Assembly (NCBI GenBank): GCA_947455805.1
Contig: CANGSN010000002.1
Location: 1-45,437, forward strand
Length of the DNA stretch: 45,437 nucleotides
Source: Planctomycetota bacterium
GTDB taxonomy: Bacteria; Planctomycetota; UBA1135; UBA2386
Reading direction: 5' to 3'
Shown here: positions 12,953-43,126 of the stretch, piece by piece
Layout of the letters: each line of letters opens with the position of its first letter
Numbering within the stretch: the stretch's first letter is position 1
Program-made: the position numbers and the translations under genes
The notes under the pieces: model-generated
What the model was told of the DNA's origin: nothing
What the model saw: only the letters and a program-made list of their open reading frames with translations
Database searches by the model: none

Positions 12953-12995
12953 TCAACCCACCCCATGCAGCGGGGCCGACTTATTTGAGAGCTTT

Positions 12996-13301: not shown

Positions 13302-13500
13302 GCTGGGTCCGGTGCGCGGGCAAGCGGAACGAACCCGAAGTCGCGAGATAGCCCGACATGGTCGCGGTGGCCCGCACCTCCCGGTAGCTCCTCCAACCCG
13401 AAGCGACCATGCGATCCAAACTCCCCCACCTGCTCCTCCCGCTGCTCGCCGCCCCCGTCGCGGCGCAAAGCCTGATCGGCCTGTCGTCCGACAACCGCCT
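13141..13500. repeat. copy B of the duplicated DUF4198/DUF4394 junction (right flank of the insertion)
   Basis: See copy A. It holds the decayed DUF4198 5' end, the divergent intergenic region, and the intact start of the DUF4394 gene. Confidence 0.75.
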
Positions 13501-19317: not shown

Positions 19318-19539
19318 GTGCGCGTCGCCTGCATCGAGGCGCGTTCGCTGATCGCGCGCGAACGCATGGTCGAGCACGGCCACCATCGCGACGCGCTGGC
19401 GGTGTGGGAACGCCTGCGCGCCGAGCATCCGTTCTCGCTGGTGCGCTGGCTGGAAGTGCCGCGCGAGATCGCCGACCTGCGGGACCGCATCGCCGAAACT
19501 GCGGCCGAGCGCGAGCCGGGCGAGCTGCGGCAGCGCTGA
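19318..19539 (+). CDS. hypothetical 73-aa protein (GTG start)
   Basis: Track ORF with balanced composition and very high GC3 (…HGHHRDALAVWERLRAEHPFSLVRWLEVPREIADLRDRIAE…). I recognise no family. Confidence 0.45.
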   Translation: MRVACIEARSLIARERMVEHGHHRDALAVWERLRAEHPFSLVRWLEVPREIADLRDRIAETAAEREPGELRQR

Positions 19540-19621
19540 GCCCGACGCGGCGACGATGCCACGGCGCGGTGCGACGTCCGCGACAAGGTTGCGCAGCGGC
19601 CGCATACTGCGCGGCCTCGCC

Positions 19622-24727: not shown

Positions 24728-24917
24728 GATCCGGCGGCGACGCGCCGGGTGCGGCGCTGTCGGCCGGGCGAATGCGGGGGCGCGCAGGGGATGGGGCGCC
24801 AGGACCAAGAAAGGGTGGATGCACGGCGACCTGCGCCCCGCTGGCAGGGAAGGTCTGGTAGCGTGTTGCCTCGGCCACAGGGCTCGTTCGCAACCCACCT
24901 CCTCCAAACCAAGCACC

Positions 24918-26870: not shown

Positions 26871-26891
26871 TCGAGGCGGTTGCATGGAGCC

Positions 26892-26930
26892 GGTGACGCG
26901 GCCGCGCTGCTTGGCTCGCGGCCGCTCACC
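26892..26930. terminator. GC-rich hairpin between convergent genes
   Basis: GGTGACGCGGCCGCG (26892-26906), a 10-nt loop, then CGCGGCCGCTCACC (26917-26930). The arms are complementary apart from one bulged base. There is no U-tract. Confidence 0.4.
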
Positions 26931-26964
26931 AGCCGCAGGCGCAGGGCACGGTCGTGGCGCGCCT

Positions 26965-27678
26965 CTAATCAGGCCGCTCGACCTGCTCCCATTCGAGCCC
27001 GGCTACCTTCGCGAGCTCGAGCACTCGTTCGAACGGCCGAGAGTCCAAGGCGGTCGCCCACAAACAGAGCCCCTCCTGCGTTTCGACGACGAGGTCGGCA
27101 TCGCCGTAGAGCCGCACTGGTTCGAAGAACCAGGGAATGTCGAGAACCGGCAAGCGCGGCAGGTGCTCGACGATCGCAGCGCAGACGGATTCCTGGGCCG
27201 CCACGCCGTAGGCGCGGAAGAGCGTTCGGGGCGAGTTCTTCACCCCGAGAAGCAACCACCAGACCGCCAGGTCGCAGATGCTCGGCGCTGCCTGACGCAG
27301 GTTCCGCTCGTCGTCGGCGAGGAGCACCACAGCGGGGTCCGTCTCGTGCAATGCCGCCAAGGGGATCGCCCATCGATGCACTCCCTGGTTCTCGCAGGCA
27401 ATCACCAGATGTCCCTGGTCGACGCACAGTTCGTGCGGCGCATACAGAACGTCCTGCACGTTCCACGCATCGGTGCGATGCCCGAATCGCTCGTGGAGCT
27501 CGCGCAGGGCGGCCGGCAATGCAAAGCCGAGCCGCGCTTCGGCTCGGTCCAGTTCGCCGGGCTTCGTCGTCGGTGCGGCCCCATCGCCATACCAATCGGA
27601 GAGCAACCCCGCGACGTGGCGCCACTTCGCTTCACGTGCAGACGATCCACCCGACGCGGAGTCCTCGATGCGTGTCAT
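26965..27678 (-). CDS. SMI1/KNR4 (SUKH-1) family immunity-like protein
   Basis: ELDRAEARLGFALPAALRELHERFG is the characteristic SMI1_KNR4 N-terminal motif. 237 aa with no signal peptide. Confidence 0.78.
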   Translation of the reverse strand: MTRIEDSASGGSSAREAKWRHVAGLLSDWYGDGAAPTTKPGELDRAEARLGFALPAALRELHERFGHRTDAWNVQDVLYAPHELCVDQGHLVIACENQGVHRWAIPLAALHETDPAVVLLADDERNLRQAAPSICDLAVWWLLLGVKNSPRTLFRAYGVAAQESVCAAIVEHLPRLPVLDIPWFFEPVRLYGDADLVVETQEGLCLWATALDSRPFERVLELAKVAGLEWEQVERPD

Positions 27679-27688
27679 GCAGCAGCCT

Positions 27689-28135
27689 TCATAGCCCCTT
27701 GACGACCCGCACTGGGCTCGTCGAACCGTCCAGACAGAAGCTCACCACCATCCACATGCGATCGAACACGAACCCGCGCCTCTGCAGCCCCACGTAGTAG
27801 CCGAGCTCGGCTTCTTCGACCCGCGCTTCCGGCTCCGATTCGCCGAGCATCGCCACGATCTCGGCGCGCGTTCGCCCCTTCCACGACCCCACAGCCATCA
27901 TGCAATCCAGCATCGCGAAGCGAACGCCCTCAGCGACGCACGCCGGATCGCGCCAGCGCACAGGGTCGAAGTTGCACCCGGGGTAGACGATCGGCCTGAG
28001 CGCGCTGGCGACGATCACGAGCACGCAGAAGCCGGCGAGCCAGGCCAGGGAGCGCGGAATCGCGACTCCATCGGAGCGCAGCGCAGCTCGCAATCCCGCC
28101 GAAGCCGTCACGGCATCTGAGGCCCTGAGTCTCAT
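27689..28135 (-). CDS. membrane-anchored hypothetical protein (BamE/SmpA-like small domain?)
   Basis: One TM helix (LAWLAGFCVLVIVASAL). The segment WKGRTRAEIVAMLGE...LGYYVG...MVVSFCLDG resembles the SmpA/OmlA fold pattern. It lies 10 nt upstream of the SUKH gene. Confidence 0.6.
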   Translation of the reverse strand: MRLRASDAVTASAGLRAALRSDGVAIPRSLAWLAGFCVLVIVASALRPIVYPGCNFDPVRWRDPACVAEGVRFAMLDCMMAVGSWKGRTRAEIVAMLGESEPEARVEEAELGYYVGLQRRGFVFDRMWMVVSFCLDGSTSPVRVVKGL

Positions 28136-28161
28136 GGGAGCTCGTCGTTCCTACACCCGCC

Positions 28162-28848
28162 CTACAAGAGCTTGCTCCAGAACTCGATCGGCGGAATCGA
28201 GTCGGGCCACGTACGACGCCCTGGGAGTTCGAACTCATGGCGCAGGTAGTCCTCGAGATCGAAGCCGTAGTAGATGACGTCCGTCTGGTGCACGGAGAAC
28301 ACCGGGTTTCCCGCTCGATGGGGGCTGGCTGGGATCATTCGGTGCAAGAACACCGGAACGAGCTTCGGCGCAGCATCGAGGAACTTGGCCGCCACCAGCT
28401 TGGCCTCGGCGGCAGAGTCCGGACGCGTACCCCATTCCGCCATCCAGACCTCATTGTGCTCGACGTCGAACAGGACCCCTTCTTTCGGCCCGTCCATCCA
28501 AGATCTCAGCGAGCCGTCGACACCTGCCCGCCAGTCTGGGAAACCGTCGCCCTTCGGGAGCGCAGTCTGCAAGAACCTCCGCAGGTCTGGCGGGAACCTG
28601 AATCCGTACTTCCGCTCGATCTGAGCAACCTCCCGGTCCGTGAGCCCAGACTCGAACGTGACGACGAATGGCTTCGTCTCGGGCGTGACGATCCCGTGGT
28701 AGTACTCAGCGCCGGTCAACTCCGCGACGAGCTTGGTCCAGTCCATGGCTCCTGCCTCCGGTCCCTGGGACGCCCGGTGGACCGCGCATGACGCCATCAT
28801 GGCTGCACACGCAAGGCTGCCCAACATCTTGCTTCGGATCACCTGCAT
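28162..28848 (-). CDS. SMI1/KNR4 (SUKH)-like immunity-type protein
   Basis: LTDREVAQIERKYGFRFPPDLRRFLQTALP is a SUKH-type motif. The N-terminal MLGSLACAAMMASC could be a lipobox. The alternative cytoplasmic start is the ATG at 28746 (MDWTKLV...). Confidence 0.7.
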   Translation of the reverse strand: MQVIRSKMLGSLACAAMMASCAVHRASQGPEAGAMDWTKLVAELTGAEYYHGIVTPETKPFVVTFESGLTDREVAQIERKYGFRFPPDLRRFLQTALPKGDGFPDWRAGVDGSLRSWMDGPKEGVLFDVEHNEVWMAEWGTRPDSAAEAKLVAAKFLDAAPKLVPVFLHRMIPASPHRAGNPVFSVHQTDVIYYGFDLEDYLRHEFELPGRRTWPDSIPPIEFWSKLL

Positions 28849-28906
28849 CTTCGCACGTCGTGTTCACGCATCCGCCGCGAGCGGCGTTGCGGCGCTGGCC
28901 GGCTGC

Positions 28907-29305
28907 TCAGGTTGCGAACCGCCAGAAGCTGTCGTCTCTCCAGACACAAGCGACGAACCAGATCAGGTTGCCTGTGTCCAGCAGCAACAAGACGAGGCAC
29001 GCGATGCTCAGGCCAACGTTGGCAGGAGCGAGCAGAAGCCCTGCGACTACTGCCATGCCCACCAACGGAATGCCGGATACGTTGCGGTACCTGCCTCTTC
29101 GCCTCAGAAAGTGATACACGAGAGGGCGTAGGAAGGAGAGGTAGAAGTTGAGGACGCAGATCCACGCGCCCAGGCAGAAGACCGAGTAGGCAAGCACGGT
29201 GCACGAGCCGCCGAAAAGCCTCCGCTCGACGAAGATCGACCCAATCGGCACCGCAAGCAGCAAGAGGACTGCGATGACAGCGATGCTCTTCCGTACGACG
29301 ATCAT
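28907..29305 (-). CDS. small polytopic membrane protein (132 aa)
   Basis: From the internal ATG at 29305, with four hydrophobic helices (IAVIAVLLLLAVPIGSIF, CTVLAYSVFCLGAWICVL, IPLVGMAVVAGLLLA, LSIACLVLLLLD). I recognise no family. Confidence 0.6.
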   Translation of the reverse strand: MIVVRKSIAVIAVLLLLAVPIGSIFVERRLFGGSCTVLAYSVFCLGAWICVLNFYLSFLRPLVYHFLRRRGRYRNVSGIPLVGMAVVAGLLLAPANVGLSIACLVLLLLDTGNLIWFVACVWRDDSFWRFAT

Positions 29306-29384
29306 GCCCACCCGACTTCTTTGACCCTCAGCCGCGAGCGCTGCTGCGGCGCTCTCCGGCTTCAAGGTCGTGTTGGGCAGCAGT

Positions 29385-29852
29385 CTATCGTCCCCTGATC
29401 GTCCGATCGCGTGCACCCGACCAGGATCTGATGTGGAGGACGTTTCCCGGCTCCATGCCTCGCAGGTCCGGCTCCTCGGTCGCCGTCAGGATGCCGGAGC
29501 CGGACCACTTGCCGTCGCGTGTCCAGTCTCCGACGAGCGTCTCGTCGAGCATCAAGGAGCGAATGAAGCTGATCGGGTCGCTTTCGGGCCATGGAACCGG
29601 AACCGGCCAGTCGAAGTGCATGTGGAACATGCCAAAGCCCACGGTGATCTCCCCCCCATCGGTGGTGACCCAGAACTCGCAATCCTGTCGGACCGGTCCC
29701 GGCTCGAGGTGAATCAGCAGCAGACCATTCTCGGCGCGGGCGTGGTCGCGGAGGCTCGGAACGGCGGCGAAGAGCGCGTCAGCGAATGATCGTGAAAAGT
29801 CGTCAAGTCCGTCCATTGTCCGCAAACCTGCCTGCCCAACGTCTTTGCCCAT
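29385..29852 (-). CDS. hypothetical cytoplasmic protein (155 aa)
   Basis: Track ORF with balanced composition. Its ATG (29852-29850) overlaps the stop of the upstream gene as ATGA. I recognise no family. Confidence 0.6.
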   Translation of the reverse strand: MGKDVGQAGLRTMDGLDDFSRSFADALFAAVPSLRDHARAENGLLLIHLEPGPVRQDCEFWVTTDGGEITVGFGMFHMHFDWPVPVPWPESDPISFIRSLMLDETLVGDWTRDGKWSGSGILTATEEPDLRGMEPGNVLHIRSWSGARDRTIRGR

Positions 29853-30262
29853 CAGCCGCCGGCGCCGCTTGGGGCGCCGGCCGGCTGCTTGGGCTTGTTG
29901 GGCGGTGCTTGCCCCCTCCCCCGCAACACGAGGCGTAGAGCAACGGCGATGGCGACGGAGGGGATCGAGTAGATTGCGCCGTAAGCCCAGCCGAAGTACA
30001 GCGCGAAGGTCCGCTTGGCACCGTCGGCAAGAAGACGGTCGAGCACCTCCGGTGGCGGGTCTGGCTGATCAGCAAGGTCTGCCAAGTGCTCGAAGTAGAA
30101 GTAGACTGCGCCGTTTGCGAGTATCCACCCTACAAGTGAAGTCCACAGTGTGAGCAGCGCCCATGATGCCGTGGAGTGACGAAGGAGCCGGCGGGTGAAC
30201 ACAGCTGGCTGCAGCAGCAGGAATGCTGCGACGCAAGCGACACATGCACAGTGACTCCACAT
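29852..30262 (-). CDS. small polytopic membrane protein (136 aa)
   Basis: From the internal ATG at 30262 (MWSHCACVACVAAFLLLQ...), with 3-4 hydrophobic helices and a Pro/Gly-rich tail. It is the first gene of the six-gene minus-strand cluster. Confidence 0.6.
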   Translation of the reverse strand: MWSHCACVACVAAFLLLQPAVFTRRLLRHSTASWALLTLWTSLVGWILANGAVYFYFEHLADLADQPDPPPEVLDRLLADGAKRTFALYFGWAYGAIYSIPSVAIAVALRLVLRGRGQAPPNKPKQPAGAPSGAGG

Positions 30263-30585
30263 CCGCCCAACTCGTGTTCGAGGGAAGTGCCGAAAGCCGG
30301 CAGGCCTCGTTCCCCGCAGCCTATCGCCGCTCACCGACGCTGCAACCCGGCCGAGCACACCATCACCGGTCACCTGCACCGGCCTTCATGAGAAGTGCCT
30401 AACTCCGGAGCCGGGCAGGGCCCGAGCACCTCACGCGCGAACGAGTCTCCGCTCGCCCCTGAAGCCGCCAACCCCCGAGACGAGACCCGCGACCCAGCTC
30501 CCCACGCTCACGCCCCCTTCCCAAACGCCACCCACGCACTTCCCCGCACTTCCCCACCGCACCCTCCGCCGCACCGCCCCGCATC

Positions 30586-32352: not shown

Positions 32353-32384
32353 GCGACGCGGCCGTGACGAGCACGGCCGGTCGC
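32353..32384 (+). terminator. hairpin immediately after argS
   Basis: GCGACGCGGCCGTG (32353-32366), a 5-nt loop, then CACGGCCGGTCGC (32372-32384), with one bulge. There is no U-tract. Confidence 0.4.
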
Positions 32385-32457
32385 GCGAACGGGAATCACC
32401 GGTAGCATCCGCGGGCTCGGCGCCGGCTGTCGGCGCCTCCGAACCGGAGAAGCCCAC

Positions 32458-33807
32458 GTGATGCACCACCGCCTGCTCGTCTCGAGCCTCGTCGTCCACG
32501 CCGTTCTCGCCACCGTCGCCGCCCAGACCAACTGGACGCTGCGCACGCCGGCGACCTCGCCGCTGCCGTTCACCGCGCACGCGATGGCGTTCCACCTGCC
32601 GAGCGACCGCCACGTGCTGTTCGGCGGCATCACCGGTGGCGTGCGCTACGACCAGACGTGGCTCTACGACGGCACCACGTGGACGCAGGCGACGCCGACG
32701 ACCGTGCCGCCAGCGCGCGTCGCGCACGCGATGGCCTACGACCAGAACCGCGGCGTGCTGGTCATGTTCGGCGGCGTTCCAGCAGCCGGCGGCCTGATCG
32801 GCGACACCTGGGAATGGGACGGCGGCAACTGGACGCAGCGCACACCCACGAACGCGCCGAGCCCGCGCCGTTCGTTCCCGCTGGTGTTCCACCCCGGCCG
32901 CGGCACCACCGTGCTGTGGGGCGGCTACACCACCACCGACCTGAACGACATGTGGGAGTGGGACGGCACCAACTGGACGCAGATCACGCCGGCGAACAGT
33001 CCGTCGCCGCGGCGCGCCAGCGACATGGCCTACGACCCGACGACCGGCAACCTGATCCTGTTCAGCGGGTACCTGATGGGCGCCGACACCTGGTCGTTCG
33101 ACGGTGCCACCTGGACGCAGCTGTCGCCGGCCGTGTCGCCGTCGGCGCGCTTCGACCACTCGATGGTCACCGACACCGCGCGCGGCCGCATCGTGATGTT
33201 CGGCGGCCCGGGTGCGGCCGACCAATGGGAATGGAACGGCGCCGCCGGCACGTGGCTCCAGCGCACGCCGGCGACGCTGCCGTCGGCGCGCAGCGACACC
33301 TACCTGTCGTACGACCTGATCCGCGAGGAGATCCTGATGTTCGGCAGCGTCGCGGTGCCGGAGACGTGGCGCTACGCGCCGGTCGCCTCGGCGTTCTTCG
33401 CGACCTTCGGCAACGGCTGCGCCGGCACGCTCGGCCAGGCGCCGTCGCTGGTCAGCAGCGACCGGCCGTGGCTCGCGGAGACGTTCGAGATGGCGATCAC
33501 GCCGGTGCCGGCGAACACGATCGGCATCGTCGTCATGGGCCTCAGCAACACGTTCTCGGGGGCGGTGCCGCTGCCGGTGTCGCTGGCGGCGATCGGCATG
33601 CCGGGCTGCGACCTGCAGGTCGATCCAGTGCTGATCGGCGGCCTGCTGGCGACGGGCACGACGGCCAACTGGGCGCTGGCGATCCCGAACGATCCGGTGC
33701 TGCAAGGCGGCGACATCTACGTGCAAGGCGGCGCGTTCGACGCCGGCGCCAACGCCGCGGGGCTGATCGTCGCCAACCACGGCCAGCTGCGCATGGGCGG
33801 CAAGTGA
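32458..33807 (+). CDS. secreted Kelch-type beta-propeller protein plus the shared C-terminal module
   Basis: Signal peptide. Six repeats each carry (N/T)W(T/L)(L/Q)xxP plus P(S/P)(A/P)R and (M/L)FGG. The last 133 aa (FGNGCAGT...MPGCDLQVDP...) are the shared module. The start is GTG at 32458 or ATG at 32461. Confidence 0.88.
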   Translation: MMHHRLLVSSLVVHAVLATVAAQTNWTLRTPATSPLPFTAHAMAFHLPSDRHVLFGGITGGVRYDQTWLYDGTTWTQATPTTVPPARVAHAMAYDQNRGVLVMFGGVPAAGGLIGDTWEWDGGNWTQRTPTNAPSPRRSFPLVFHPGRGTTVLWGGYTTTDLNDMWEWDGTNWTQITPANSPSPRRASDMAYDPTTGNLILFSGYLMGADTWSFDGATWTQLSPAVSPSARFDHSMVTDTARGRIVMFGGPGAADQWEWNGAAGTWLQRTPATLPSARSDTYLSYDLIREEILMFGSVAVPETWRYAPVASAFFATFGNGCAGTLGQAPSLVSSDRPWLAETFEMAITPVPANTIGIVVMGLSNTFSGAVPLPVSLAAIGMPGCDLQVDPVLIGGLLATGTTANWALAIPNDPVLQGGDIYVQGGAFDAGANAAGLIVANHGQLRMGGK

Positions 33808-33846
33808 CCGCCTGAGCGCGCCGCGCGCCGTCGGCGGAACGTCGCG

Positions 33847-36800
33847 TCAGCCGCCGCTGGCGAACGGCACCACGACGGTCGCCGTCGCCTCCGCCACATC
33901 GGGCGGCATCACCACCGGCGCACTCCACGGGGCACCGGGCTCGCCGCCGCGCACTTCGATCGGCAGGGTCGGCGCCGGATCGAGCACCAGTTCGCCGTCG
34001 ACCAGAGGCAGCTGGTAGCGCTCGGTCGGCCACAGCCCGCCCCCGCAGCGCAGCTGCACACGCTCGCCGACGATCGCCGTGCCATCCGGTCGCGTCAGCC
34101 GCAGCACGAACCGCTGCGGCCGGTGCGCCAGCGTCAGCGCGACGTGTTCGCCCGCGGCGACGAAGAAGCGTTCGGCATGCAGCCCAGCCAGCGCGCGCGG
34201 GTCGTAGCTGCCGCGGCGGAACGACGCCCGGTAGGTGCCGGGCAGCAGCTGGTCGAACACGAACGTGCCATCGGCGGCGAGCGGCGTCGTCGCGGCGCGA
34301 TCCATGGTGCCGTCGTCGCGTTCGCGCCACAGGTCGATGGCGTAGTCGGCTGGCAGGCGCTCGCTCGACCGCACCGCGCCGCGCAGCTGCGCCAGCGGCA
34401 GGTTGGCGAGATCGAGCATGACGGCGACGCGCGCAGCGTCGACGTCGATCTTGACGGCGCGCATCGGCAACAGCGAGCCGAACACGCCCTGGGCGACGAG
34501 CACGCGGCGCTGCACGAGCAGCGTGTGTTCGCCGTAGGGCAGGTCCTCGACGACGAACGTGCCGTCGGCGGCGACCGGCAGGCTCTGGCCGGCGCGGTGG
34601 CGCGTGCCGAGCACGGCGATGCGCAGGTCGGCGAACGGCACCGAGGGCGAACGCACGGTGCCGTGCACGTCGCCGTGGTGCGGCAGGGCCACGACCAGCG
34701 GTGAGCCGTCGGGCGGCGGCACCAGGTCGCGCACGATGCCGTCGGGATCGCCGTCGCGGTGCAGGCGCAGCACGCAGTCGGTCAGGTCCGGACCGCGCCG
34801 CAACATCGCCATGCCGTCGGTGCCGGTGGTCGCGCCGTCGAGCCGTTCGAGCAGCCGCGCCGACATCGCGCAGCGACGACCGCGCCGCGGGTCGACGGCG
34901 AGATCGCCTTCCGCCAGCTCCGCGCCGTTGCGTCGGCGCAGCAGTTCGACCTGCAGGCCGGCGACCGGCTGGCCGTCGTCGACGACGCGGATCGGCAGTG
35001 GCCGCATGCGTGCCAGCACGACCGTCATCGCGGCGTCGCCGGCGGCCGGCACGGCCATGCGTTCGCTCGGCGCCAACTCGGGATCCGTCGGCAGCACCCG
35101 CAACCACGTCGCACCGGGCTGCACGCTGGGCAGGGGCAGCACGCCGCCGCGGTGCCGGCCGCGGTGCTGCACCTGGTCGTGGAAGAACGGCGACAGGCCC
35201 TCGCGCTGGAGGGCGATCCCGAAGTTGACGACCGGCTGCCCGGCCTCGTCGACCACGCGCAGCTCGAACGGCGGCAACGGTGTGAGGCGCACGACCAGGT
35301 CGGTTGTGCCCCACGGCACACCGCGCAGCGGCGGATGCGCCTGCCACGACTCCGCGTGCAGCACGCGCAGCATCGTCGCCGGCGCGCGATCGAGTTCCCC
35401 GCGGCTCACGACGAACGAGCCGTCGGCCCCGCTGCGCACCGTCTCCGCGAGGAAGGGATCGCTGATGGCGACGCCGGCCACCGGCTTGCCATCGCGATCG
35501 ACGACGCGACCCCGAATCGATTGCGGACTGGCGACCTGCAGTTCGACCTCGCCGGATTCAGCCGTGACCTGCGTCACCGTCGGCGTCGTCGCGAGCAACG
35601 CTCCGGCGCCGAGACGCCATTGCACCTCGCCGAACGGCACCGGCGCCGCCAACTCGAACGTGCCGTCGCTGCGGATCCGGGTGCCGGCGCGGATCTCCTT
35701 CGCCATGCCACTCGACGCCACCGCGAAGTTGGCCATCAGCATGCGCCCCGCCAAGCTGCTGCCGTCGCCGACGACGACGCGGCCGCGCAGGAGGCGGCCT
35801 GCGCGCATGCGGAGCTCGCCCAGGTCCAGCGTCCGACGCGCGCTGTCGAGGCTGCCTTGCCACACCCAACCGACGCGCTGGGGCGCCGTGACCCGCACTT
35901 CGACGAGGCCCGCGACCGCGGCAGGGATGGCGAACTGGCCATCGCGCGCCGACTCCCCGACACGGCTCGCGGTCGTGCGGGCGGGACCGAGGCCGACGGC
36001 TGCGGGACCCGCATCGGGGCGCGACGTCGGCGCGGCGTGCGGATTGGGCACCAGCTGCAGTTCGGAGGCATCGATCGAGCGCAGCACGACCTGCACCCCG
36101 GGCAGCGGACTGCCGGTGTCGGCGTCGACGACGCGACCGCGAACCGCCAGCGGCAGGGCCGCCGGCGCCACCGGCACTTCCGCAGACGCCGGCGGTGCTG
36201 CAGCGGGAGGAGGAGCTTCGGCGGACCCTTTCGCCTGTGCCACGACCTCCCGCTGCAGCGCCACATCAGCGGGGCCGCCTGCAGACGACGACCCGGACGC
36301 CACCGAGGGCGCCCCTCCGGGACCTGCCCGGCCCGACGACGGGGTGGGGCCACCCCCGTCGGACTGCCATGCGAGGACCCCGATCGCGAGGGCCGCCGCC
36401 AGCGCCGCCGAGGCAACGCCGAAACCTGCAGCCCCCATGAACGCACCGCCTGCCGACACGGCGGGCGGCGCTCCTGTGCCGAGCCCGAACGCGACGGCCA
36501 GACCTGGCCGCCAGTCGGTCTCGGTTCCTTCACCCAGCCGCGCGCGCAGCGACCCTACGCCGCGCTGCAGCCGACTCCTCACGGTCGCGATCGGGATCCC
36601 AGATGTCGATGCAATCTCCTGCGGCGAGCGCCCCTCGAAGAAGCGCTGCCAGATGGTGTCCCGGTAGGCCGGCTCGAGCGCGAACACGGCGGCCATCAGC
36701 TGCTTCGCCATCTCCTGATGGGCGAGCATCGCGGCCTGGTCCGGCGCCTGGTCCGGCGAGAGTTCGGGCCGGGTCGCGGCGATCTCGTGCAGTTCCCGCC

Positions 36801-37023
36801 GGCTCGCGCTGCGGCGGAACTTGCCGACGACGCGCATCAGCACGGTGCGCAGCCAGCCACCGGGCGCGCTGTCGTGCGGCGGCGGCTCCCGCAAGGCTGC
36901 CACCCAGACCTCCTGCACCGCATCGTCGGCATCGTGCGCATTGCGGAGCAATGCCCCCGCGAGACGCCGCAAGGCGGTCGCGTGGCGTTCGAGCTGGAGC
37001 TCGACGTCGAACGGCGAGGACAC
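33847..37023 (-). CDS. ECF sigma-70 domain fused to a TM helix and a large carboxypeptidase-regulatory-like repeat ectodomain
   Basis: A single uninterrupted frame. Region 2: DADDAVQEVWVAAL. Region 4: EPAYRDTIWQRFFEGRSPQEIASTSGIPIATVRSRLQRG. A ~30-aa linker leads to a TM helix (FMGAAGFGVASAALAAALAIGVLAW, about 36367-36447). About 800 aa follow with repeats such as VRGRVVDADTGSPLPGVQVVL, IRGRVVDRDGKPVAGVAISD and LRVVDEAGQPVVNFGIAL. I chose the GTG at 37023 (MSSPFDVELQLERH...). The ATGs at 37260 and 37206 remain possible. Confidence 0.8.
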   Translation of the reverse strand: MSSPFDVELQLERHATALRRLAGALLRNAHDADDAVQEVWVAALREPPPHDSAPGGWLRTVLMRVVGKFRRSASRRELHEIAATRPELSPDQAPDQAAMLAHQEMAKQLMAAVFALEPAYRDTIWQRFFEGRSPQEIASTSGIPIATVRSRLQRGVGSLRARLGEGTETDWRPGLAVAFGLGTGAPPAVSAGGAFMGAAGFGVASAALAAALAIGVLAWQSDGGGPTPSSGRAGPGGAPSVASGSSSAGGPADVALQREVVAQAKGSAEAPPPAAAPPASAEVPVAPAALPLAVRGRVVDADTGSPLPGVQVVLRSIDASELQLVPNPHAAPTSRPDAGPAAVGLGPARTTASRVGESARDGQFAIPAAVAGLVEVRVTAPQRVGWVWQGSLDSARRTLDLGELRMRAGRLLRGRVVVGDGSSLAGRMLMANFAVASSGMAKEIRAGTRIRSDGTFELAAPVPFGEVQWRLGAGALLATTPTVTQVTAESGEVELQVASPQSIRGRVVDRDGKPVAGVAISDPFLAETVRSGADGSFVVSRGELDRAPATMLRVLHAESWQAHPPLRGVPWGTTDLVVRLTPLPPFELRVVDEAGQPVVNFGIALQREGLSPFFHDQVQHRGRHRGGVLPLPSVQPGATWLRVLPTDPELAPSERMAVPAAGDAAMTVVLARMRPLPIRVVDDGQPVAGLQVELLRRRNGAELAEGDLAVDPRRGRRCAMSARLLERLDGATTGTDGMAMLRRGPDLTDCVLRLHRDGDPDGIVRDLVPPPDGSPLVVALPHHGDVHGTVRSPSVPFADLRIAVLGTRHRAGQSLPVAADGTFVVEDLPYGEHTLLVQRRVLVAQGVFGSLLPMRAVKIDVDAARVAVMLDLANLPLAQLRGAVRSSERLPADYAIDLWRERDDGTMDRAATTPLAADGTFVFDQLLPGTYRASFRRGSYDPRALAGLHAERFFVAAGEHVALTLAHRPQRFVLRLTRPDGTAIVGERVQLRCGGGLWPTERYQLPLVDGELVLDPAPTLPIEVRGGEPGAPWSAPVVMPPDVAEATATVVVPFASGG

Positions 37024-37081
37024 GGGAGAGAGGCGAGGGACGGGACGAACGGGAGGGACGTGGCGCGTGATCGGGCCGGTC

Positions 37082-37109
37082 AGACGCCACAGCGGCCAGT
37101 TCTGTTTCC
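37082..37109 (-). promoter_or_regulatory. ECF-type promoter candidate upstream of the fused sigma gene
   Basis: The minus strand reads GGAAAC (37109-37104), a 17-nt spacer, then CGTCT (37086-37082), about 60 nt upstream of the GTG at 37023. Confidence 0.4.
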
Positions 37110-37272
37110 GACTAGATGCCCGCAACCTGTCGAACGGATGCAATCCCCGCGCGGTTTTCTGCGTGACAGGAGATTCCGCGTGGCGGGTACCCGTGTCCGG
37201 GCACATGGGTGACACGGTCCAGCCGCCGCAGACCGATCGCAGCCTCCGGATTCCGGTCACTCGGCGCCGCGA

Positions 37273-39690
37273 TCACCACACCTTGCGCACGATCTGCAGG
37301 TCCGGGCGGTCGGCGGCGAGGCCCGGCACATCCTCGTCGCGCACGCAGGTCGAACGGCTGATGTCGAGGAACCGGAGGCGCTTCGCGGCGCGGATGGCGT
37401 CGGCGTGCACCGGGGTCATCTTCGTGCAGCCCTTGGCGGCAAGGTGCTCGAGGCTCGGCGCGGCGAGCAGCGCGCGGAAGCCTTCGTCATCGAGCCAGTC
37501 GGCGTCGCGCAACACCAGCTTGCGCAGCGCTGGGAAGCGGTCCCGCAGCAGGGCGGACGCAGCGGCGTCGAAACCGCAGCCAGACAGATCGAGATCCCGC
37601 ACGCCTGTCGGCACGTGCAGCAACGCACTGCTGACCAGGCCGGTGCATTCCGCCAGCACGAGGTGGCGCAAGCTGGGCAGTTCGGCGACTGCCTGCAGCG
37701 CCATGCTGGTGAAGGGCCCCTGGGTGAGGTCGAGGTCCTGCAGGACCAGCAGATGCTGGAGGGACATCACCGCCCGGTCGTGCAGGTTGGGCAGGTTGGC
37801 GAGTGCTAGGCGGTTCAAGGTCCGCAGCTCGCCAACGAGCGCGAGTTGCTCCGTCGTGAGGTGCTTGCACGCGGACAGGGTCAGGGAGGTCAGGTGACGG
37901 CAGCCGGCGATGCCGCGCATGCCAGCGTCACCGAAGCCGCGCACAGCGATCAGGTACAGTTCTCGAAGCTCCGGCAGGGACGGCAGGACCGCGAGCGCAG
38001 CGTCGCCGACCACACAACCGACCAGGCTCAGCGTCCTCAGCTTCTTGCCCTTGGCCAGCGACCGCAGTGCGTCGGCAGGCAAGGCGTCGACGCCGACGAC
38101 GTGGAGCCGCCGCAAGGCCGGGAGCACCAGCACGGCGTCGAGACCGACAGCGGTCAGCGGATCCTGGTCGTCGCGGACGAACTCGAGCACTTCGATCCAA
38201 GGACAGGCTGCCAGCGCCACGGCTGCGCGATCGCCGAGGTTCCGCACCTCCACGTGTGTGACCATCGGCGGCAGCGTCGCGATCTCGGCGACGGCGCGGA
38301 TCTGGCGGTACGTGTGCTGCCGGTGCAGGTCGGCGAGCTTCAACTGGAACTCAGCGTCGTCGCGTTCCACGCGCACCCGCTTGCCGGCGGCGAGCAGAGT
38401 CGCCGCATGCTCGAGCGTGAACCATGGTGCGACACCGAGGTCGACTTCGCGCAGGGGCTTCGCGGCCGCGAGCAGCGCTACCAGGTCGGCCGGCGAGTCC
38501 GCATTCGTGCCGGTCGAGGTCCGGACGCCCGCGATGCAGAGCTTCTGCAACTGCGACAACTGCAGAACCCCGCGAACGGTGCTGACATCGAGGGACCGGC
38601 AGCCGCCGAGGTCCAACTCGATCAGGGCCGGCGTCTTCTCCACGAGCCGTGCGCCGATCTGCTCGGTGACCATCGCATGCGGAATCCAGAGTCGCCGCAG
38701 AGCTGGCCAGTCCTGAATCACGTCGTCGTGAACAGCACTGCTTCCTGGCGGACCGAACGGCGCTCCCAGATGGATACGCAACTCGCGCAACTGCTTCAGC
38801 GCCGCGAGCAGCTTCGAATCACGCAGCTCCGGGCTGTAGTCGGAATGCAGCTCGAGGTGCTCTAGCGCGGTCAGCTCAGCGATCGCCCGAAGCAGAACCG
38901 GTCGGATCGGTTCCTCCATGCAGTCGATGCGCAACGTCTCGAGACCCTGGAGGGAAGCGACGACCTCTGCGCCTTCTTGCTCGATGCCAAAGGAGAACTG
39001 CAGTGCGAGAGACCTCAGCTTGGCCAACTGGCGCAGCGGAGCAAGCGAAGCGTCCGCGTCGTGGAGGTAGCCGAGCCGCAGATCCCGAAGCTCCGAGAGC
39101 CTTCCCACGAGCGTCATCAGTTCGGCCGTGGTGGCGGTGTCGTCTTGGTCCTTCCGGCGCGGCCTGACGTCAGGGTGAACTCCCTCGACGATCAAAATCT
39201 CGAGCTTCGGACAGCGATCGACCAGCTCTTCCATGCCGCGCTTGCCGAGCTCCACCTTCACCGCGCGCAGGTCCGTCGGCAGCGACGCGACTTCCTGGCG
39301 AGAACGAACGACGACGATCTCACCTTCTCCGAGTTCGCCGTCACCCGGGTCCTGCATCGAGGGCGCAGCGACGAACTGCGCAGGATGGTCGCGCCCCGCA
39401 CCCGCGCGCTGCATCCATGCGACCCCGCCGACGACGCCCAGCCCGAGAAGCAGCAGCGCCGCCAGCCACAACTGACGCCACAGCCCAGCGCCGACGGGGA
39501 CGTCTTCAGGCCCGAGCAACGGCCGTTCGCCTGCCGCAGCGCGCGCGATCACCTGCGCCGTCACGTCGGGCGCACGTTCGCCGCCGAGCGCTTCGTCGAG
39601 TCCGGCGTCGAGCCAGCGGTCCATCGCTTCGGCTTCGTGGGAACGCAGCGGCGCGGCGTCGTTCGCTTCGTTGTTCATGGCATCGCTCAC
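37273..39690 (-). CDS. anti-sigma-factor-like membrane protein with a leucine-rich-repeat ectodomain
   Basis: Its GTG start overlaps the sigma gene stop (GTGA at 39690-39687). A short cytoplasmic N-terminus (MDRWLDAGLDEALGGE) precedes one TM helix (LWLAALLLLGLGVVGGVAW). About 700 aa of Cys-containing LRRs follow (LxxLxLxxCxxLxD, e.g. LRTLSLVGCVVGDAAL and LTSLTLSACKHLTTEQL). Confidence 0.82.
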   Translation of the reverse strand: MSDAMNNEANDAAPLRSHEAEAMDRWLDAGLDEALGGERAPDVTAQVIARAAAGERPLLGPEDVPVGAGLWRQLWLAALLLLGLGVVGGVAWMQRAGAGRDHPAQFVAAPSMQDPGDGELGEGEIVVVRSRQEVASLPTDLRAVKVELGKRGMEELVDRCPKLEILIVEGVHPDVRPRRKDQDDTATTAELMTLVGRLSELRDLRLGYLHDADASLAPLRQLAKLRSLALQFSFGIEQEGAEVVASLQGLETLRIDCMEEPIRPVLLRAIAELTALEHLELHSDYSPELRDSKLLAALKQLRELRIHLGAPFGPPGSSAVHDDVIQDWPALRRLWIPHAMVTEQIGARLVEKTPALIELDLGGCRSLDVSTVRGVLQLSQLQKLCIAGVRTSTGTNADSPADLVALLAAAKPLREVDLGVAPWFTLEHAATLLAAGKRVRVERDDAEFQLKLADLHRQHTYRQIRAVAEIATLPPMVTHVEVRNLGDRAAVALAACPWIEVLEFVRDDQDPLTAVGLDAVLVLPALRRLHVVGVDALPADALRSLAKGKKLRTLSLVGCVVGDAALAVLPSLPELRELYLIAVRGFGDAGMRGIAGCRHLTSLTLSACKHLTTEQLALVGELRTLNRLALANLPNLHDRAVMSLQHLLVLQDLDLTQGPFTSMALQAVAELPSLRHLVLAECTGLVSSALLHVPTGVRDLDLSGCGFDAAASALLRDRFPALRKLVLRDADWLDDEGFRALLAAPSLEHLAAKGCTKMTPVHADAIRAAKRLRFLDISRSTCVRDEDVPGLAADRPDLQIVRKVW

Positions 39691-40223
39691 GTCGCCCTCC
39701 GCGGATTCGTGGCCACTTCACCAGCGCCGAGCCGCCGCTCGACACACGCGCGCAGCACCGCGCGCACACGCTGCAGCAGCGTCTTCACGCCGTTCTCCTT
39801 CATGCCGAGCGCCTGGGCGATCGTGCGCCGATCCTCTCCGTCGCGGTAGCTGCGCTGCACCGCCTCGCGCGCCTTGCCGTCGAGACCTTCGACGCACGAA
39901 CGCAGCGCCTCGAGCCAGCGTTCGCCCTCGTCGGCGGCGGCGACGTCGCGCCAGCGCGCTTCGACGAACTCCGCCAGCAGCACCTCGCGCCGCCCCTGGT
40001 CGCGCCGGCGGCGCAGCCACAGGTGCCGCGCCGTCTCGCGCAGGAACGTCGCCACCGCCGCGTCGCCGCGGTCGTCGTGCAGCCGGTCGAGTGCCACCAG
40101 GAACGTGTCCTGCAGCAGGTCCTCCGCCTGATCGCCGCGCGCCCCGAGCGCACGCAGGTAGCGCCACAGGCCGAGCTGGTGGCGGCGCACCAGCGCCGCG
40201 AGGTCGAGCGGGCTCTCGGTCAT
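39687..40223 (-). CDS. ECF-family RNA polymerase sigma factor
   Basis: The last 178 aa of track ORF 39687..41018, from the ATG at 40223. Region 2: AEDLLQDTFLVAL. Region 4: REAVQRSYRDGEDRRTIAQALGMKENGVKTLLQRVR. Confidence 0.9.
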   Translation of the reverse strand: MTESPLDLAALVRRHQLGLWRYLRALGARGDQAEDLLQDTFLVALDRLHDDRGDAAVATFLRETARHLWLRRRRDQGRREVLLAEFVEARWRDVAAADEGERWLEALRSCVEGLDGKAREAVQRSYRDGEDRRTIAQALGMKENGVKTLLQRVRAVLRACVERRLGAGEVATNPRRAT

Positions 40224-40338
40224 GGCCAGGGCGGGTTGGATCGTCGCATGCACGCGGCATTCATCCCGCGAGCCCGCCGAGGGTATTCGACCTTCTCCAC
40301 TTTCCCAGCAGGCGGGGCCGGCAGCGCATGGGCGCCGG

Positions 40339-40367
40339 TTGACGCGGCGGGCGAGCACACCCACGAT
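40339..40367 (+). promoter_or_regulatory. sigma-70-like promoter candidate for the 40402 gene
   Basis: TTGACG (40339-40344), a 17-nt spacer, then CACGAT (40362-40367). A GAGGAGG Shine-Dalgarno lies about 9 nt before the ATG at 40402. Confidence 0.3.
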
Positions 40368-40401
40368 CCCCGACCCTGACGGCGCAGAGGAGGCGCCGCG
40401 C

Positions 40402-43062
40402 ATGCAGAAGCTCGGGATCCTGTTCCTCGCCGTCGTGGCGGCCCTCGCGGTGTGGTGGTTCGTGTCGGGCAGCGAGCTCCTGCCAACACCGGACGCGGAC
40501 GAACGCACCGCCGAGCAGGTGCCGGCAGTCGCAGCGGTGGCGGAAGCCGTCGCGACGGGCAGCGCCGCGAGCCAGCCGAAGGCGGATGCGGAGCTCGCGC
40601 GCACCCAGGCGGCGGCGAGCACGAGCGCAGCCCACGGACCGCAGACCACCGTGCGCGGCCGCTGCGTCGACAGCGCCGGCAACCCGATCGCCGGGTGCAC
40701 GGTCGGCGTGCACGGCGTGTGGGGCAACGAGAAGCTCATGGAGTCGTGGCTGCGCGACCACGAAGCCGAGCCGGAGTGGAAACACCCGCCGAAGCAGACG
40801 ACCGGCACCGACGGCAGGTTCGAGTTCACGTTCTGGCCGCCGCCGCCGTTCCAGTTCCTGTTGGACATCGAGCATGCGCAGTTCGCGGCGATGCGCGCCC
40901 GCTGGGGCCCCCTCGATGCGGGCTCGGTGCGCGACGTCGGCGACGTCGTCATGACGACCGGCATCCGCGTGCGCGGTCGCGTCGTCGACCAGGCCGGGCA
41001 GCCGCTCGCGAAGTTCATGGTCTCCGTGCATCCCAGGCGTCCGGGCGAGGGCTACGACCAGCAGCTGCCGACGCCGGTGTGGAGTGCCTACGGACGCAGC
41101 GACGAGACCGGCGCGTTCGCCTGCGAGCAGTTGCTGCCGCCGGGCCCCTACCACGTGAGCACGAGCGGCCGGGAGCGGCTGCTGGAGCCGATCGAAGGCA
41201 CGCTGACGGCGACGCGACCGGTCGAAGAACTGACGATCGTGGTCGTCAAGAAACCCCCGGGCCAGACGATCACCGGGCGCGTCGTCGACGACGCCGGACG
41301 ACCCGTGGCGGACGCGCGGGTCGAAGCGCGGGACGCCAATCGCGAAAGCAGAGCGGACCGCACCGGGCGCGACGGCACGTTCCGGATCGAGGCCGACCAC
41401 ACGATGACCGGCAAGCTGCCGGTGACGCTGCTGGTGCGGGCGGAGGGCTACGAAGAGTCCACGCCGACGGAGCCCATGCCGTTCGGCAGCAAAGACGTCG
41501 TGCTGCCGCTGGTGCGCGCCGGCACGCTGCAGGTGCGCGTGGTCGACGAGGAGCAGCGTCCGATCGAGAAGTTCCAGGTGCGCGTGGCGCCGCGCGACCG
41601 TCCAGGCCGTTCGTCCGATGACTTCCGCGTGCGGTCCCGGGGCCCGCACAGCGATGGCGTCGCCGAGGTGCCGGGCATCGGCGCGGGCAAGTGGACGGTC
41701 GCGGTCGACTTTCCCAAGTCGGCGGGGCGGACGTCGGTGCTGCAACCGATCGAGGTGGCGGCACGCACCAACACCCGCGTCGAACTCGTGGCGGCACGCG
41801 ACGTGTCGCGCTCGGTGCGCGTCGTCGACCGGTCGGACAACCCGCTCGTGGGCAGCGTCGTGCAGCTGTGCGAACCGCTCGGCTACGGATTCGATGCGGA
41901 CACGAACCGCATCAGCGAAGAGCAGCGCTACTCCTGGCAGAACCCGTACACGGCGATCGTCCGCGCCGAAGGCAAGACCGACGCGACGGGCCGCGTCGTG
42001 CTGTCCGGGCCACCCGGCCGAACGCTCGGGGTCGCCGCACTCGGGCCGGGCCACGTGCCCAAGTTCGCCGGCGACGTGCTGGTGGATGTCGCCGACGAAC
42101 TCGTGCTCACCGTGGACGTCGGCGCCCGCCTGCGCGGCAAGATCGTGCCGCCCGAGGCCGTCGCCGAACTGGAGCGACTGCTGGGCAACGCGGCGGCCCG
42201 GCCGTGGATCTCGCTGTATCGGGACGACCCGAAGAGCAAGGTCGTCGGCCAGGACAACCCCCTCTTCGCGGTCGCCAGCGACGGCACGTTCGAGCTCTCG
42301 GGCCTGCCCCCGGGCAGCTGGCAACTGTTCCTGTTCTTCTGGGACGGCTACGAGAACGGCAGCCTCGCCAGTCCCTGGATGCGTGACGTGACGTTGCAGG
42401 AGGGCCGTCTGACGGAAGTGTCGCTGGATCTCGCCTACCTCCTCCCGGGAACGATGTCGGGCACCGTCACGAAGAACGGTGTCCCCGCGGTCGACGCGGT
42501 GCTGAGCTTCTACGTCGAGGTGCCGACGGGCAGGAACCCGATCGGCCTCAACCGGTTCGCCCGCACCGATGCCAACGGCCGCTACTCCGTCCTGCTGCCG
42601 CGCGGCACCTGCAGCGGCTCCGTGTCGACGCGCTCGGGAACGTCTTGGTTGCGGGTCCCGATCACGGTGACCGCCGCGATCACCGCCGGCCAGACGACGA
42701 CCCAGGACTTCGCGATCTGGGCCGGCGACATCAAGGTCACGGTGCTCGACGCGAACGGCAAGCCGGTGCCTGGCGTGCAGCTGTTGGGGCGAAGCTCGAG
42801 CGGGGACCAGGTGTGGCTGCCGGTCACCGATGACCAGGGTCGCACACGCCTCGAACGGCCCGTCGAGACGCTGCAGCTGCGCGTGCTGCCGCGGCGGCTG
42901 ACGACGCAGGCGGGACGCGAGGAGCTCGCGGAGCAGCATCGCAAGAACGGCGGCACCGGCGATCCGCTCGAGCCCCTGTGGATCGACCTCGGCACCCTCG
43001 GCGTCGTCGCCGGCCAGACGACGGAGGTCGAACGCAAGCTGCCCGCGAGCTTCGACCAGTGA
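40402..43062 (+). CDS. membrane-anchored protein with many carboxypeptidase-regulatory-like repeats (886 aa)
   Basis: From the internal ATG at 40402, with the anchor MQKLGILFLAVVAALAVWWFV. Repeats include VRGRCVDSAGNPIAGCTVGV, VRGRVVDQAGQPLAKFMVSV, ITGRVVDDAGRPVADARVEA, LQVRVVDEEQRPIEKFQVRV and IKVTVLDANGKPVPGVQLLG. It is divergent from the ECF sigma gene. Confidence 0.85.
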   Translation: MQKLGILFLAVVAALAVWWFVSGSELLPTPDADERTAEQVPAVAAVAEAVATGSAASQPKADAELARTQAAASTSAAHGPQTTVRGRCVDSAGNPIAGCTVGVHGVWGNEKLMESWLRDHEAEPEWKHPPKQTTGTDGRFEFTFWPPPPFQFLLDIEHAQFAAMRARWGPLDAGSVRDVGDVVMTTGIRVRGRVVDQAGQPLAKFMVSVHPRRPGEGYDQQLPTPVWSAYGRSDETGAFACEQLLPPGPYHVSTSGRERLLEPIEGTLTATRPVEELTIVVVKKPPGQTITGRVVDDAGRPVADARVEARDANRESRADRTGRDGTFRIEADHTMTGKLPVTLLVRAEGYEESTPTEPMPFGSKDVVLPLVRAGTLQVRVVDEEQRPIEKFQVRVAPRDRPGRSSDDFRVRSRGPHSDGVAEVPGIGAGKWTVAVDFPKSAGRTSVLQPIEVAARTNTRVELVAARDVSRSVRVVDRSDNPLVGSVVQLCEPLGYGFDADTNRISEEQRYSWQNPYTAIVRAEGKTDATGRVVLSGPPGRTLGVAALGPGHVPKFAGDVLVDVADELVLTVDVGARLRGKIVPPEAVAELERLLGNAAARPWISLYRDDPKSKVVGQDNPLFAVASDGTFELSGLPPGSWQLFLFFWDGYENGSLASPWMRDVTLQEGRLTEVSLDLAYLLPGTMSGTVTKNGVPAVDAVLSFYVEVPTGRNPIGLNRFARTDANGRYSVLLPRGTCSGSVSTRSGTSWLRVPITVTAAITAGQTTTQDFAIWAGDIKVTVLDANGKPVPGVQLLGRSSSGDQVWLPVTDDQGRTRLERPVETLQLRVLPRRLTTQAGREELAEQHRKNGGTGDPLEPLWIDLGTLGVVAGQTTEVERKLPASFDQ

Positions 43063-43092
43063 TGGCGGAACGCCGTCGCGCGCTGGCGCCTA

Positions 43093-43117
43093 GGAACCGG
43101 GCGGGCGATCGTGCGTC
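43093..43117 (+). promoter_or_regulatory. ECF-type promoter candidate upstream of the beta-propeller gene
   Basis: GGAAC (43093-43097), a 16-nt spacer, then CGTC (43114-43117). It ends 9 nt before the ATG at 43127, which would imply a nearly leaderless mRNA. Confidence 0.35.
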
Positions 43118-43126
43118 GAGCCGCCG

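Follow-up and report, generated by a model that had tools for sequence, protein, structure and literature searches.

A planctomycetal extracytoplasmic function sigma factor fused to a predicted membrane anchor and a beta-sandwich ectodomain, with no detectable anti-sigma domain

Introduction

Is membrane tethering, or a linker of 30 residues, enough to silence a sigma factor? The question is raised by a gene on the minus strand of a 45,437-nt stretch of planctomycetal DNA (contig CANGSN010000002.1 of assembly GCA_947455805.1, positions 1 to 45,437; hereafter the window), which encodes a sigma factor of the extracytoplasmic function (ECF) type, a predicted transmembrane (TM) helix and a large ectodomain in a single frame. 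ECF sigma factors constitute the third major mode by which bacteria transduce signals; Planctomycetota possess ~40 of them per genome, almost none of which have been studied. For fused membrane-spanning ECF sigma factors, the mechanism has to our knowledge been demonstrated in IutY only, a protein that does possess an anti-sigma domain. An initial annotation of the window, made from the sequence alone, described the gene as a membrane-tethered sigma factor and placed it in a sigma cascade with its neighbours. Here the architecture is examined together with its conservation, its upstream region and its genomic surroundings, and the possible modes of action are weighed.

Domain architecture and predicted structure

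The fused protein is composed, in order, of an ECF core, a linker of ~30 amino acids (aa), one predicted TM helix, a Pro/Ala/Gly spacer of ~70 aa and ~8 predicted beta-sandwich domains (Table 1). The initial annotation had given the order as sigma2, sigma4, a linker of ~30 aa, one TM helix and a long ectodomain, and Pfam, hydropathy and AlphaFold2 all agree with it, the ectodomain measuring ~770 aa; in the hidden Markov model (HMM) scan that it suggested, Sigma70_r2, Sigma70_r4_2 and CarboxypepD_reg (PF13620, 79.4 bits against a cut-off of 32.3) all score above their gathering thresholds. TIGR02937 (sigma70-ECF) is the sole NCBIfam model passed by the protein, with a score of 52.9 against a cut-off of 42.9. 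Pfam returns no match to Sigma70_r1 or Sigma70_r3, and the gap between regions 2 and 4 is short (aa 77-107, ~30 residues), with a helix-loop-helix predicted by AlphaFold2; region 4.2 displays an ATV(K/R)SRLQRG block that is kept across the family. Foldseek comparison with the PDB aligns this part with M. tuberculosis SigE/SigL/SigH, E. coli sigmaE-RseA and AlgU-MucA at a probability of 1.0, and phmmer against PDB sequences retrieves SigE at 2e-13. The N-terminal part is a genuine ECF (group 4) sigma factor, as all domain and fold features of the superfamily that were tested are present.

The AlphaFold2 model, built from a 48-sequence alignment, has a mean predicted local distance difference test score (pLDDT) of 81. 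The sigma part is modelled as helices over aa 7-162, followed by a short helix at 172-179, and aa 293-1051 form beta structure at high confidence; residues 182-289 are modelled at low confidence and contain a helix at 205-220. In Foldseek the ectodomain resembles tandem Ig/CnaB/MG-type arrays, such as those of the B. anthracis TIE protein, SpyCEP, Gram-positive pilins and complement. The count of ~8 domains is taken from the model; a pattern (regex) search of the ectodomain repeats recovers 2 units only.

Kyte-Doolittle hydropathy displays one peak, at aa 193-219, with a maximum of 2.08 and the sequence GAFMGAAGFGVASAALAAALAIGVLAW, in keeping with the single TM helix that had been annotated. 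A second helix at aa 174-192 was considered and rejected on a mean hydropathy of ~1.1, calculated by hand. The helix is preceded by Arg in the window protein and by Lys in many relatives, which fits an N-in/C-out topology; from this we infer that the sigma domain lies inside and the ectodomain outside.

The window has a G+C content of ~70%, with long open reading frames (ORFs) in several frames. The fused ORF has a G+C content at third codon positions (GC3) of 0.87 and the codon-position signature of a real gene; it ends with a stop codon at 33847-33849, and its maximal extent in the ORF list reaches up to 37260. Translation probably starts at the GTG at 37023, because orthologues of the fused gene are 1035-1056 aa long and because the alignment of orthologue DNA features indels that are not multiples of three 5' of this GTG, with conservation from the GTG onward. 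For the 99%-identical P0001 the gene caller chose the ATG corresponding to 37206, which yields a protein of 1119 aa.

Conservation of the fused frame and size of the family

A search of 5.8 billion proteins yields 63 homologues, nearly all of which are ~800-1250 aa long and contain Sigma70_r2, Sigma70_r4_2 and CarboxypepD_reg, with a hydrophobic segment at aa ~190-230. The continuous fused frame is found in identical or near-identical genes from independent ENA, NCBI, JGI and Logan assemblies, and it persists in homologues down to ~23-30% identity. When species-representative genomes were scanned with a profile built from 13 closer sequences, 78 loci were found, nearly all in Planctomycetota metagenome-assembled genomes and most with ORFs of 650-1100 aa; there are up to ~6 copies per genome, with 4-6 loci in each of DASVAL, DASUFY, DASRJH and CAYMPV. 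The close relatives were assembled from lake and soil metagenomes.

An exhaustive HMMER search with aa 1-230 as query returns 78 representatives of 50%-identity clusters at E <=1e-30. A length of 600 aa or more is reached by 118 of 147 additional 50%-identity representatives, and 110 of these 118 have a TM segment, at a median position of aa 198; the HMMER alignments extend through both the linker and the TM segment. To judge from their ends, which fall inside the TM segment, the linker or the first beta-sandwich, the short representatives are contig-truncated. A split version, with a free sigma factor and a separate anchored protein as its orthologue, was not seen among the homologues examined, and the comparison of fused with split orthologues that the initial annotation had proposed finds the fused form throughout. 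By these counts the family is large, multi-copy and almost confined to uncultured Planctomycetota, and it comprises more than 150 clusters at 50% identity.

Two further features of the family were observed. Adjacent family genes occur as tandem, divergent or convergent pairs at five loci (L014, L015, L048, L052 and L059), which indicates local duplication of the whole fused gene. The homologues P0057 and P0061 contain extracytoplasmic PDZ domains (PF17820, PF00595, PF13180) besides CarboxypepD_reg; such domains are characteristic of envelope-stress proteases and of sensors that bind C-terminal peptides.

The juxtamembrane linker

The ~30 residues between region 4 and the membrane give no match to anti-sigma, zf-HC2, RskA or FecR profiles in Pfam and NCBIfam, and they contain no Cys or His motifs. 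The only secondary structure predicted there by AlphaFold2 is one helix of eight residues; the linker is too short for an anti-sigma domain, and the absence of such a domain, claimed at the outset, stands. Inhibition, should there be any, would then have to be exerted by tethering or by the short linker.

The linker is well conserved. Of 48 diverse members, at least 90% have Trp171, and the family consensus reads LR.RLD....W...LA...G, followed by GG..(L)M and often by a Lys before the helix. In orthologues of 27-52% identity, the sigma core is 46-66% identical, the linker 37-62% and the ectodomain 19-46%. Because its conservation is near that of the sigma core and well above that of the ectodomain, the linker is, on comparative grounds, functional and more than a passive connector. 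The TM helices of the family are Ala-rich (A 29%, G 10%).

A promoter-like element upstream of family genes

The intergenic region before the fused gene spans ~250 nt. It contains the upstream block GAAGAAAACCG.GC.GG...TGCATCCGTT, the sole block kept down to the 48%-identity orthologue L004. Its element in the window reads AAAC-N17-CGTT, an exact pattern with 2 matches in the window where 0.16 are expected; the classical ECF promoter features AAC at -35 and CGT at -10.

De novo k-mer counting was applied to both strands of the 300 nt upstream of 68 family genes. TGCATCC occurs on the coding strand of 38 of the 68 upstream regions (opposite strand, 1/68), and the shorter GCATCC on that of 51 (opposite strand, 11/68); most of the sites are 35-58 nt away from the predicted start codon that follows. 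With their cores aligned, they read T-GCATCC-(G/C)(A/C)T(C), with an A/T-rich, -35-like patch 13-19 nt upstream (variants GGAAATC, GGAATC, GAAAAC and AGAATG) in otherwise GC-rich DNA, so that the family motif overall is GGAAtC/GAAAAC, ~12-13 nt, TGCATCC. TGCATCC is present 146 times in 1.18 Mb of family loci, and roughly 38 of these sites directly precede family genes; other TGCATCC and GCATCC sites in the window and the loci are mostly intragenic or have no A/T patch. Two earlier candidates were rejected: GGAAAC-N17-CGTC (~37075-37105) lies in a stretch that is deleted in the 48%-identity orthologue, and a strict AAACC-N14-19-CCGTT is found upstream of 2/69 only.

Autoregulation of ECF sigma factors through group-specific promoters is an established rule (PMC7826278, PMC8103513). 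Since a group-specific motif sits before the ECF genes themselves, the motif points to autoregulation by the fused sigma factors; it is also indirect evidence that their sigma domains are functional and share a common promoter specificity.

A related site precedes another gene of the window. The sequence GCGAACGGGAATCACCGGTAGCATCCGCGG (32378-32415, plus strand) is located 53 nt before a Kelch-repeat gene (32458-33807), with GAAC/GGAATC upstream of a GCATCC core; TAGCATCCGCGG and the bases downstream of it are conserved in L008, the -35-like part is not. The site may be a weak target of the fused sigma factor, or may have arisen by chance.

Table 1. Features of the fused sigma gene, its upstream region and its neighbours (window coordinates)
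Feature	Positions	Strand	Evidence
Fused ECF sigma gene, complete, 1058 aa	33847-37023	minus	ORF list, GC3, Pfam, same-architecture homologues, orthologue lengths
Sigma70_r2 (aa 12-76)	36796-36990	minus	PF04542 37.1 bits (cut-off 24), TIGR02937, Foldseek/phmmer
Sigma70_r4_2 helix-turn-helix (aa 108-156)	36556-36702	minus	PF08281 33.3 bits (cut-off 25.7)
Cytoplasmic juxtamembrane linker, conserved (aa 163-192)	36448-36537	minus	Family alignments, AlphaFold2 helix 172-179
Predicted single Ala/Gly-rich TM helix (aa 193-219)	36367-36447	minus	Only Kyte-Doolittle peak >1.6
Pro/Ala/Gly/Ser-rich spacer, predicted disordered, extracytoplasmic (aa 220-292)	36148-36366	minus	pLDDT <50, poor conservation
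Ectodomain, ~8 tandem CarboxypepD_reg/transthyretin-like beta-sandwiches (aa 293-1058)	33850-36147	minus	PF13620, AlphaFold2, Foldseek
ECF-type promoter-like element AGAAAACC-N-TGCATCCGTT, ~110-135 nt before start codon	37133-37160	minus	Block conserved in L004
Single-pass membrane protein, extracytoplasmic leucine-rich repeat (LRR) domain, 805 aa	37273-39690	minus	LRR Pfam matches
Separate ECF sigma factor, 178 aa, two genes upstream	39687-40223	minus	Pfam r2 + r4_2
Sigma-less paralogue (signal anchor, spacer, beta-sandwich array), 886 aa	40402-43062	plus	BLASTP, ectodomain HMM

Neighbouring genes and the proposed sigma cascade

Two genes upstream of the fused gene lies a separate ECF sigma gene, whose nearest NCBIfam model, TIGR02989, is below its cut-off; the start of the LRR gene overlaps its stop by 4 nt. 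The two had been described as a canonical ECF/anti-sigma pair. The ECF half of that description is borne out by Pfam, whereas the LRR protein is a putative anti-sigma factor by position and topology only, its cytoplasmic N-terminus matching no anti-sigma profile in Pfam or NCBIfam. A block upstream of the separate ECF gene (40225-40345, minus strand), GTCGAATACCCTCG ... GGGATGAA ... CGTGC(A/G)TGCGA, is shared with L004 and is presumably the promoter or operator of the ECF/LRR operon. The block bears a loose likeness to TGCATCC that is not conserved, as the invariant core is broken (TGCATGC; TGCGTGC in L004).

The trio of separate ECF, LRR and fused sigma genes, followed by an arginyl-tRNA synthetase gene, is syntenic in relatives of 99%, 82%, 80% and 48% identity; the Kelch-repeat gene stands between the trio and the synthetase gene in the closest relatives and is absent from L004 (48%). 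The ECF/LRR pair is absent within 8 kb of the family gene at L011, L013 and L028 (36-37% identity) and at most other family loci. Retention of the pair is thus limited to orthologues with ~48% identity or more, and it appears to be a lineage-specific neighbour.

On the other side of the separate ECF gene, and transcribed divergently from it, is a sigma-less paralogue of the fused protein. The paralogy between the two ectodomains was noticed in the initial annotation and is confirmed here: the proteins are collinear and 27% identical over 429 aa (BLASTP, E 1e-13), and the paralogue matches the family ectodomain HMM at 3.9e-141 and CarboxypepD_reg with 131 bits. It is absent from L001-L003, L008 and L010 (99%, 82% and 80% relatives), which have the same flanking genes; in these a PD40 gene lies ~160 nt from the sigma gene with nothing between. 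This amounts to a presence/absence difference of ~2.9 kb (window 40224-43126 against L001 6826-6986 and L008 4614-4774), and the sequence again matches L001 and L008 from ~115 nt upstream of the separate sigma gene's start codon. Because it is missing in the 99%, 82% and 80% relatives, the paralogue is, by this comparison, strain-specific, a strain-level indel and no fixed partner of the fused protein. Sigma-less ectodomain homologues are found within 8 kb at 12 of 72 loci. A scan of 33600-40500 for sigma-70 promoters and intrinsic terminators found nothing, and the window has no tRNA or Rfam match.

According to the cascade proposed in the initial annotation, the LRR-controlled ECF sigma factor would transcribe the fused sigma gene, which would form a second tier. 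The order sigma-LRR-fused sigma, on one strand, is indeed kept from 99% to 48% identity, and the fused gene has an intergenic region of its own with an AAC-N17-CGT-like element, to which CGTGCATGCGA upstream of the separate sigma gene is loosely similar. However, the proposal appears doubtful, because the motif is mostly found at loci that have no neighbouring ECF pair: the GCATCC core precedes ~50 such family genes, and the pair is missing from the three 36-37% relatives named above. The element of the separate sigma gene, moreover, breaks the core and has its A/T patch at a different spacing, and the two sigma cores are just 26% identical. With the pair confined to close orthologues and the promoter motif family-wide, the cascade claim is not upheld, and autoregulation is the simpler reading.

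Comparison with known ECF systems

The closest named group is ECF57 (formerly ECF01-Gob), which is enriched in Planctomycetes at 5.3 copies per genome (PMC7826278). ECF57 and the fused family share a planctomycetal origin, several paralogues per genome, and an ECF core with a very large C-terminal extension, and neither has a separate anti-sigma factor. However, the extension consists of WD40-like repeats in ECF57 and of a CarboxypepD_reg-like beta-sandwich array in the fused family. ECF57 is also described as having a conserved pair of cysteines that is said to connect sigma2 with sigma4 (PMC8999054), whereas aa 1-165 of the window protein are free of Cys, as is the sigma part of 87 of the 118 long representatives. 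Membership in ECF57 was considered and, judged by the Cys pair and the WD40 repeats, both features taken from the published description, appears improbable. The extensions of ECF01-Gob proteins may also begin with a TM helix. One beta-propeller relative was encountered (P0051, PQQ_2 / Sigma70_ECF, 34% identity), the only distant sigma-core match of that type.

IutY of P. putida (ECF243) and the predicted ECF48/52/53 fusions (e.g., SCO4117) likewise combine an ECF core, a membrane segment and an extracytoplasmic sensing part in one polypeptide, and are in that sense one-component transmembrane sigma factors too (PMC8999054, PMC5826349). Theirs, however, includes a FecR-like or zinc-finger ZAS anti-sigma domain where the fused family has just ~30 residues, their ectodomains are FecR C-terminal or carbohydrate-binding, and they belong to other phyla. 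Because an anti-sigma domain was tested for and is absent by profile search, the fused family is no sigma/anti-sigma hybrid in the IutY/ECF52 sense. The logic of the classical RpoE-RseA system, in which regulated intramembrane proteolysis (DegS/RseP/ClpXP) brings about release, is also similar, with an extracytoplasmic sensor, a single TM segment, a membrane-held ECF sigma factor and autoregulation, all of which would apply here; that system is made of two polypeptides, whereas the fused family has one, without an anti-sigma domain.

Planctomycetes ECF sigma factors are known to acquire heterogeneous C-terminal extensions by capture of adjacent genes, and non-ECF homologues of these extensions are frequent in related genomes (Pinto and da Fonseca 2020, PMC7671368). 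The window is similar in that a fused and a sigma-less form of the ectodomain are located 3 kb apart; however, that study stresses unrelated extensions in recent duplicates, whereas the fused family maintains one stable architecture over more than 150 clusters, its linker and promoter-like element being conserved as well. The literature also agrees with the remark in the initial annotation that ECF sigma factors with transmembrane C-terminal extensions are listed in classifications and essentially uncharacterised (PMC7826278, PMC8999054, PMC7671368). Such ECF sigma factors and the diversity of planctomycetal extensions are therefore already known, and the fused family is no new category. What appears to be undescribed in the literature consulted is the stable architecture without an anti-sigma domain and with its Trp linker and CarboxypepD_reg rod, the size of the family, and the TGCATCC element; phrase searches of the literature for a membrane-tethered sigma factor and for GCATCC gave nothing relevant.

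Proposed mechanism and alternative readings

We consider it somewhat probable that the fused sigma factor is sequestered at the membrane and then released by proteolysis, as for IutY. The tether would hold the sigma domain at the membrane, unable to form a productive holoenzyme, and the anchor would thereby replace an anti-sigma factor. The ectodomain would sense a signal, or suffer damage, leading to regulated proteolysis; site-1 cleavage in the disordered spacer or the ectodomain would be followed by intramembrane cleavage of the TM helix, which is Ala/Gly-rich and predicted to be helix-weak. Once free, the sigma core would use the TGCATCC promoter to transcribe its own gene, in positive autoregulation, together with a regulon. 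The ECF/LRR pair would be a lineage-specific neighbour of this circuit and not a required activator. The precedent is IutY, a sigma/anti-sigma hybrid that is activated by Prc and RseP; proteolytic activation has also been predicted for ECF48/52/53 (PMC8999054).

Several points weigh against sequestration and release. IutY and ECF52 carry an anti-sigma domain and the fused protein does not, so that the analogy is incomplete; silencing could be due to steric tethering or to the conserved linker. No gene for a site-2 protease or Prc/CtpA is found in the window. The predicted topology is drawn from hydropathy only, and the TM helix is preceded by the weakly hydrophobic stretch at aa 174-192 (mean ~1.1). 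The promoter-like motif might be recognised by a different sigma factor or regulator; its -35-like element is degenerate, and, if GCATCC is the -10 element, the spacing is shorter than in the classical AAC-N16-17-CGT. Lastly, the TGCATCC and GCATCC sites of the window and the loci revealed no target genes beyond the sigma genes.

Alternatively, the full-length protein could recruit core RNA polymerase (RNAP) at the membrane without proteolysis, in the manner of ToxR or CadC, with the ectodomain acting allosterically or by clustering. Membrane-integrated one-component transcription activators such as these two are an established class, and a linker conserved like the sigma core is to be expected if tethered geometry matters; the lack of an anti-sigma domain and of a protease gene in the neighbourhood is also consistent with activity in place. 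Nevertheless, we consider activity of the tethered protein unlikely. We know of no sigma factor that functions while anchored in the membrane, and a holoenzyme of ~400 kDa on DNA would have little space in the ~30 residues that separate region 4 from the bilayer. The Ala/Gly-rich TM helix and the disordered spacer resemble substrates of regulated intramembrane proteolysis, and IutY, the sole tethered ECF sigma factor studied experimentally, is released (PMC8999054). It is similarly improbable that the sigma factor never leaves the membrane, its tether positioning RNAP at the inner membrane face for the transcription of envelope genes, or that the Trp linker is a minimal autoinhibitory element. 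If the former were true, transcription of envelope genes would be physically coupled to the site of ectodomain sensing; if the latter, the Trp linker would be a new minimal element that replaces the four-helix anti-sigma domain.

The sigma region could also be a mimic or decoy, similar to PhyR, which binds an anti-sigma factor or another partner at the membrane and is no subunit of RNAP. Pfam matches PhyR_sigma2 weakly (17.2 bits, short of the cut-off of 27), and in the clade of the window the region-2 'N' of ...IARN... is replaced (LMRVV), a residue present in the family consensus; both would agree with this. The idea is nonetheless highly improbable: the scores of regions 2 and 4 exceed the Pfam and TIGR02937 cut-offs, the sigma regions are the most conserved part of the protein and match real ECF sigma factors in holoenzyme structures, a strand- and family-specific promoter-like motif precedes the genes, and there is no receiver or other switch domain.

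An artefact, in which a sequencing frameshift or chance read-through joined a sigma gene to the gene of an anchored beta-sandwich protein, could appeal to the many spurious long ORFs at high G+C (74% in this region) and to the free-standing sigma-less ectodomain protein nearby, but it is effectively excluded by the comparative data, with the same frame in the assemblies of independent projects and in more than 200 diverged homologues, and with a linker that is itself conserved across the supposed junction.

Other observations in the window

An island of lower G+C is located at ~10230-13390 (0.57-0.61, against ~0.70 elsewhere). Its minus strand encodes a 562-aa signal-anchored protein (10376-12064), a Cys-rich ORF of 153 aa (12001-12462) and a small membrane protein (12512-12952); none of these genes has the high GC3 typical of the genome, and the island has no tRNA or Rfam matches. 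Horizontal acquisition is possible. A second region, 26870-30390 (~3.5 kb, G+C 0.64-0.66), contains no ORF that passes the GC3 filter and lies between the gene at 24654-26870 and that of arginyl-tRNA synthetase. The DUF4394 protein (13388-15334, plus strand) has two copies of its domain; a 35-nt stretch, CTTCGACTTCAACCCGACCATCGACCGCATCCGCCT, recurs almost unchanged at 13720 and 14473, a sign of recent duplication within the gene or of gene conversion. The genes at 19352-22825 (plus strand, 1157 aa) and 24654-26870 (plus strand, 738 aa) are large, with clear signs of coding (GC3 0.92-0.95), and have no Pfam match at E <=1e-4.

Significance

The analysis supplies a family of more than 150 clusters, its domain boundaries, a candidate TGCATCC promoter and natural sigma-less paralogues of the sensor, with which the question of what suffices to silence a sigma factor may be approached. 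These would be of use to those who study ECF signalling and planctomycetal envelope biology, and they do not overturn current concepts. The fused family would rather provide, inside the existing concept, a clean case, open to experiment, of a sigma factor coupled directly to the membrane.

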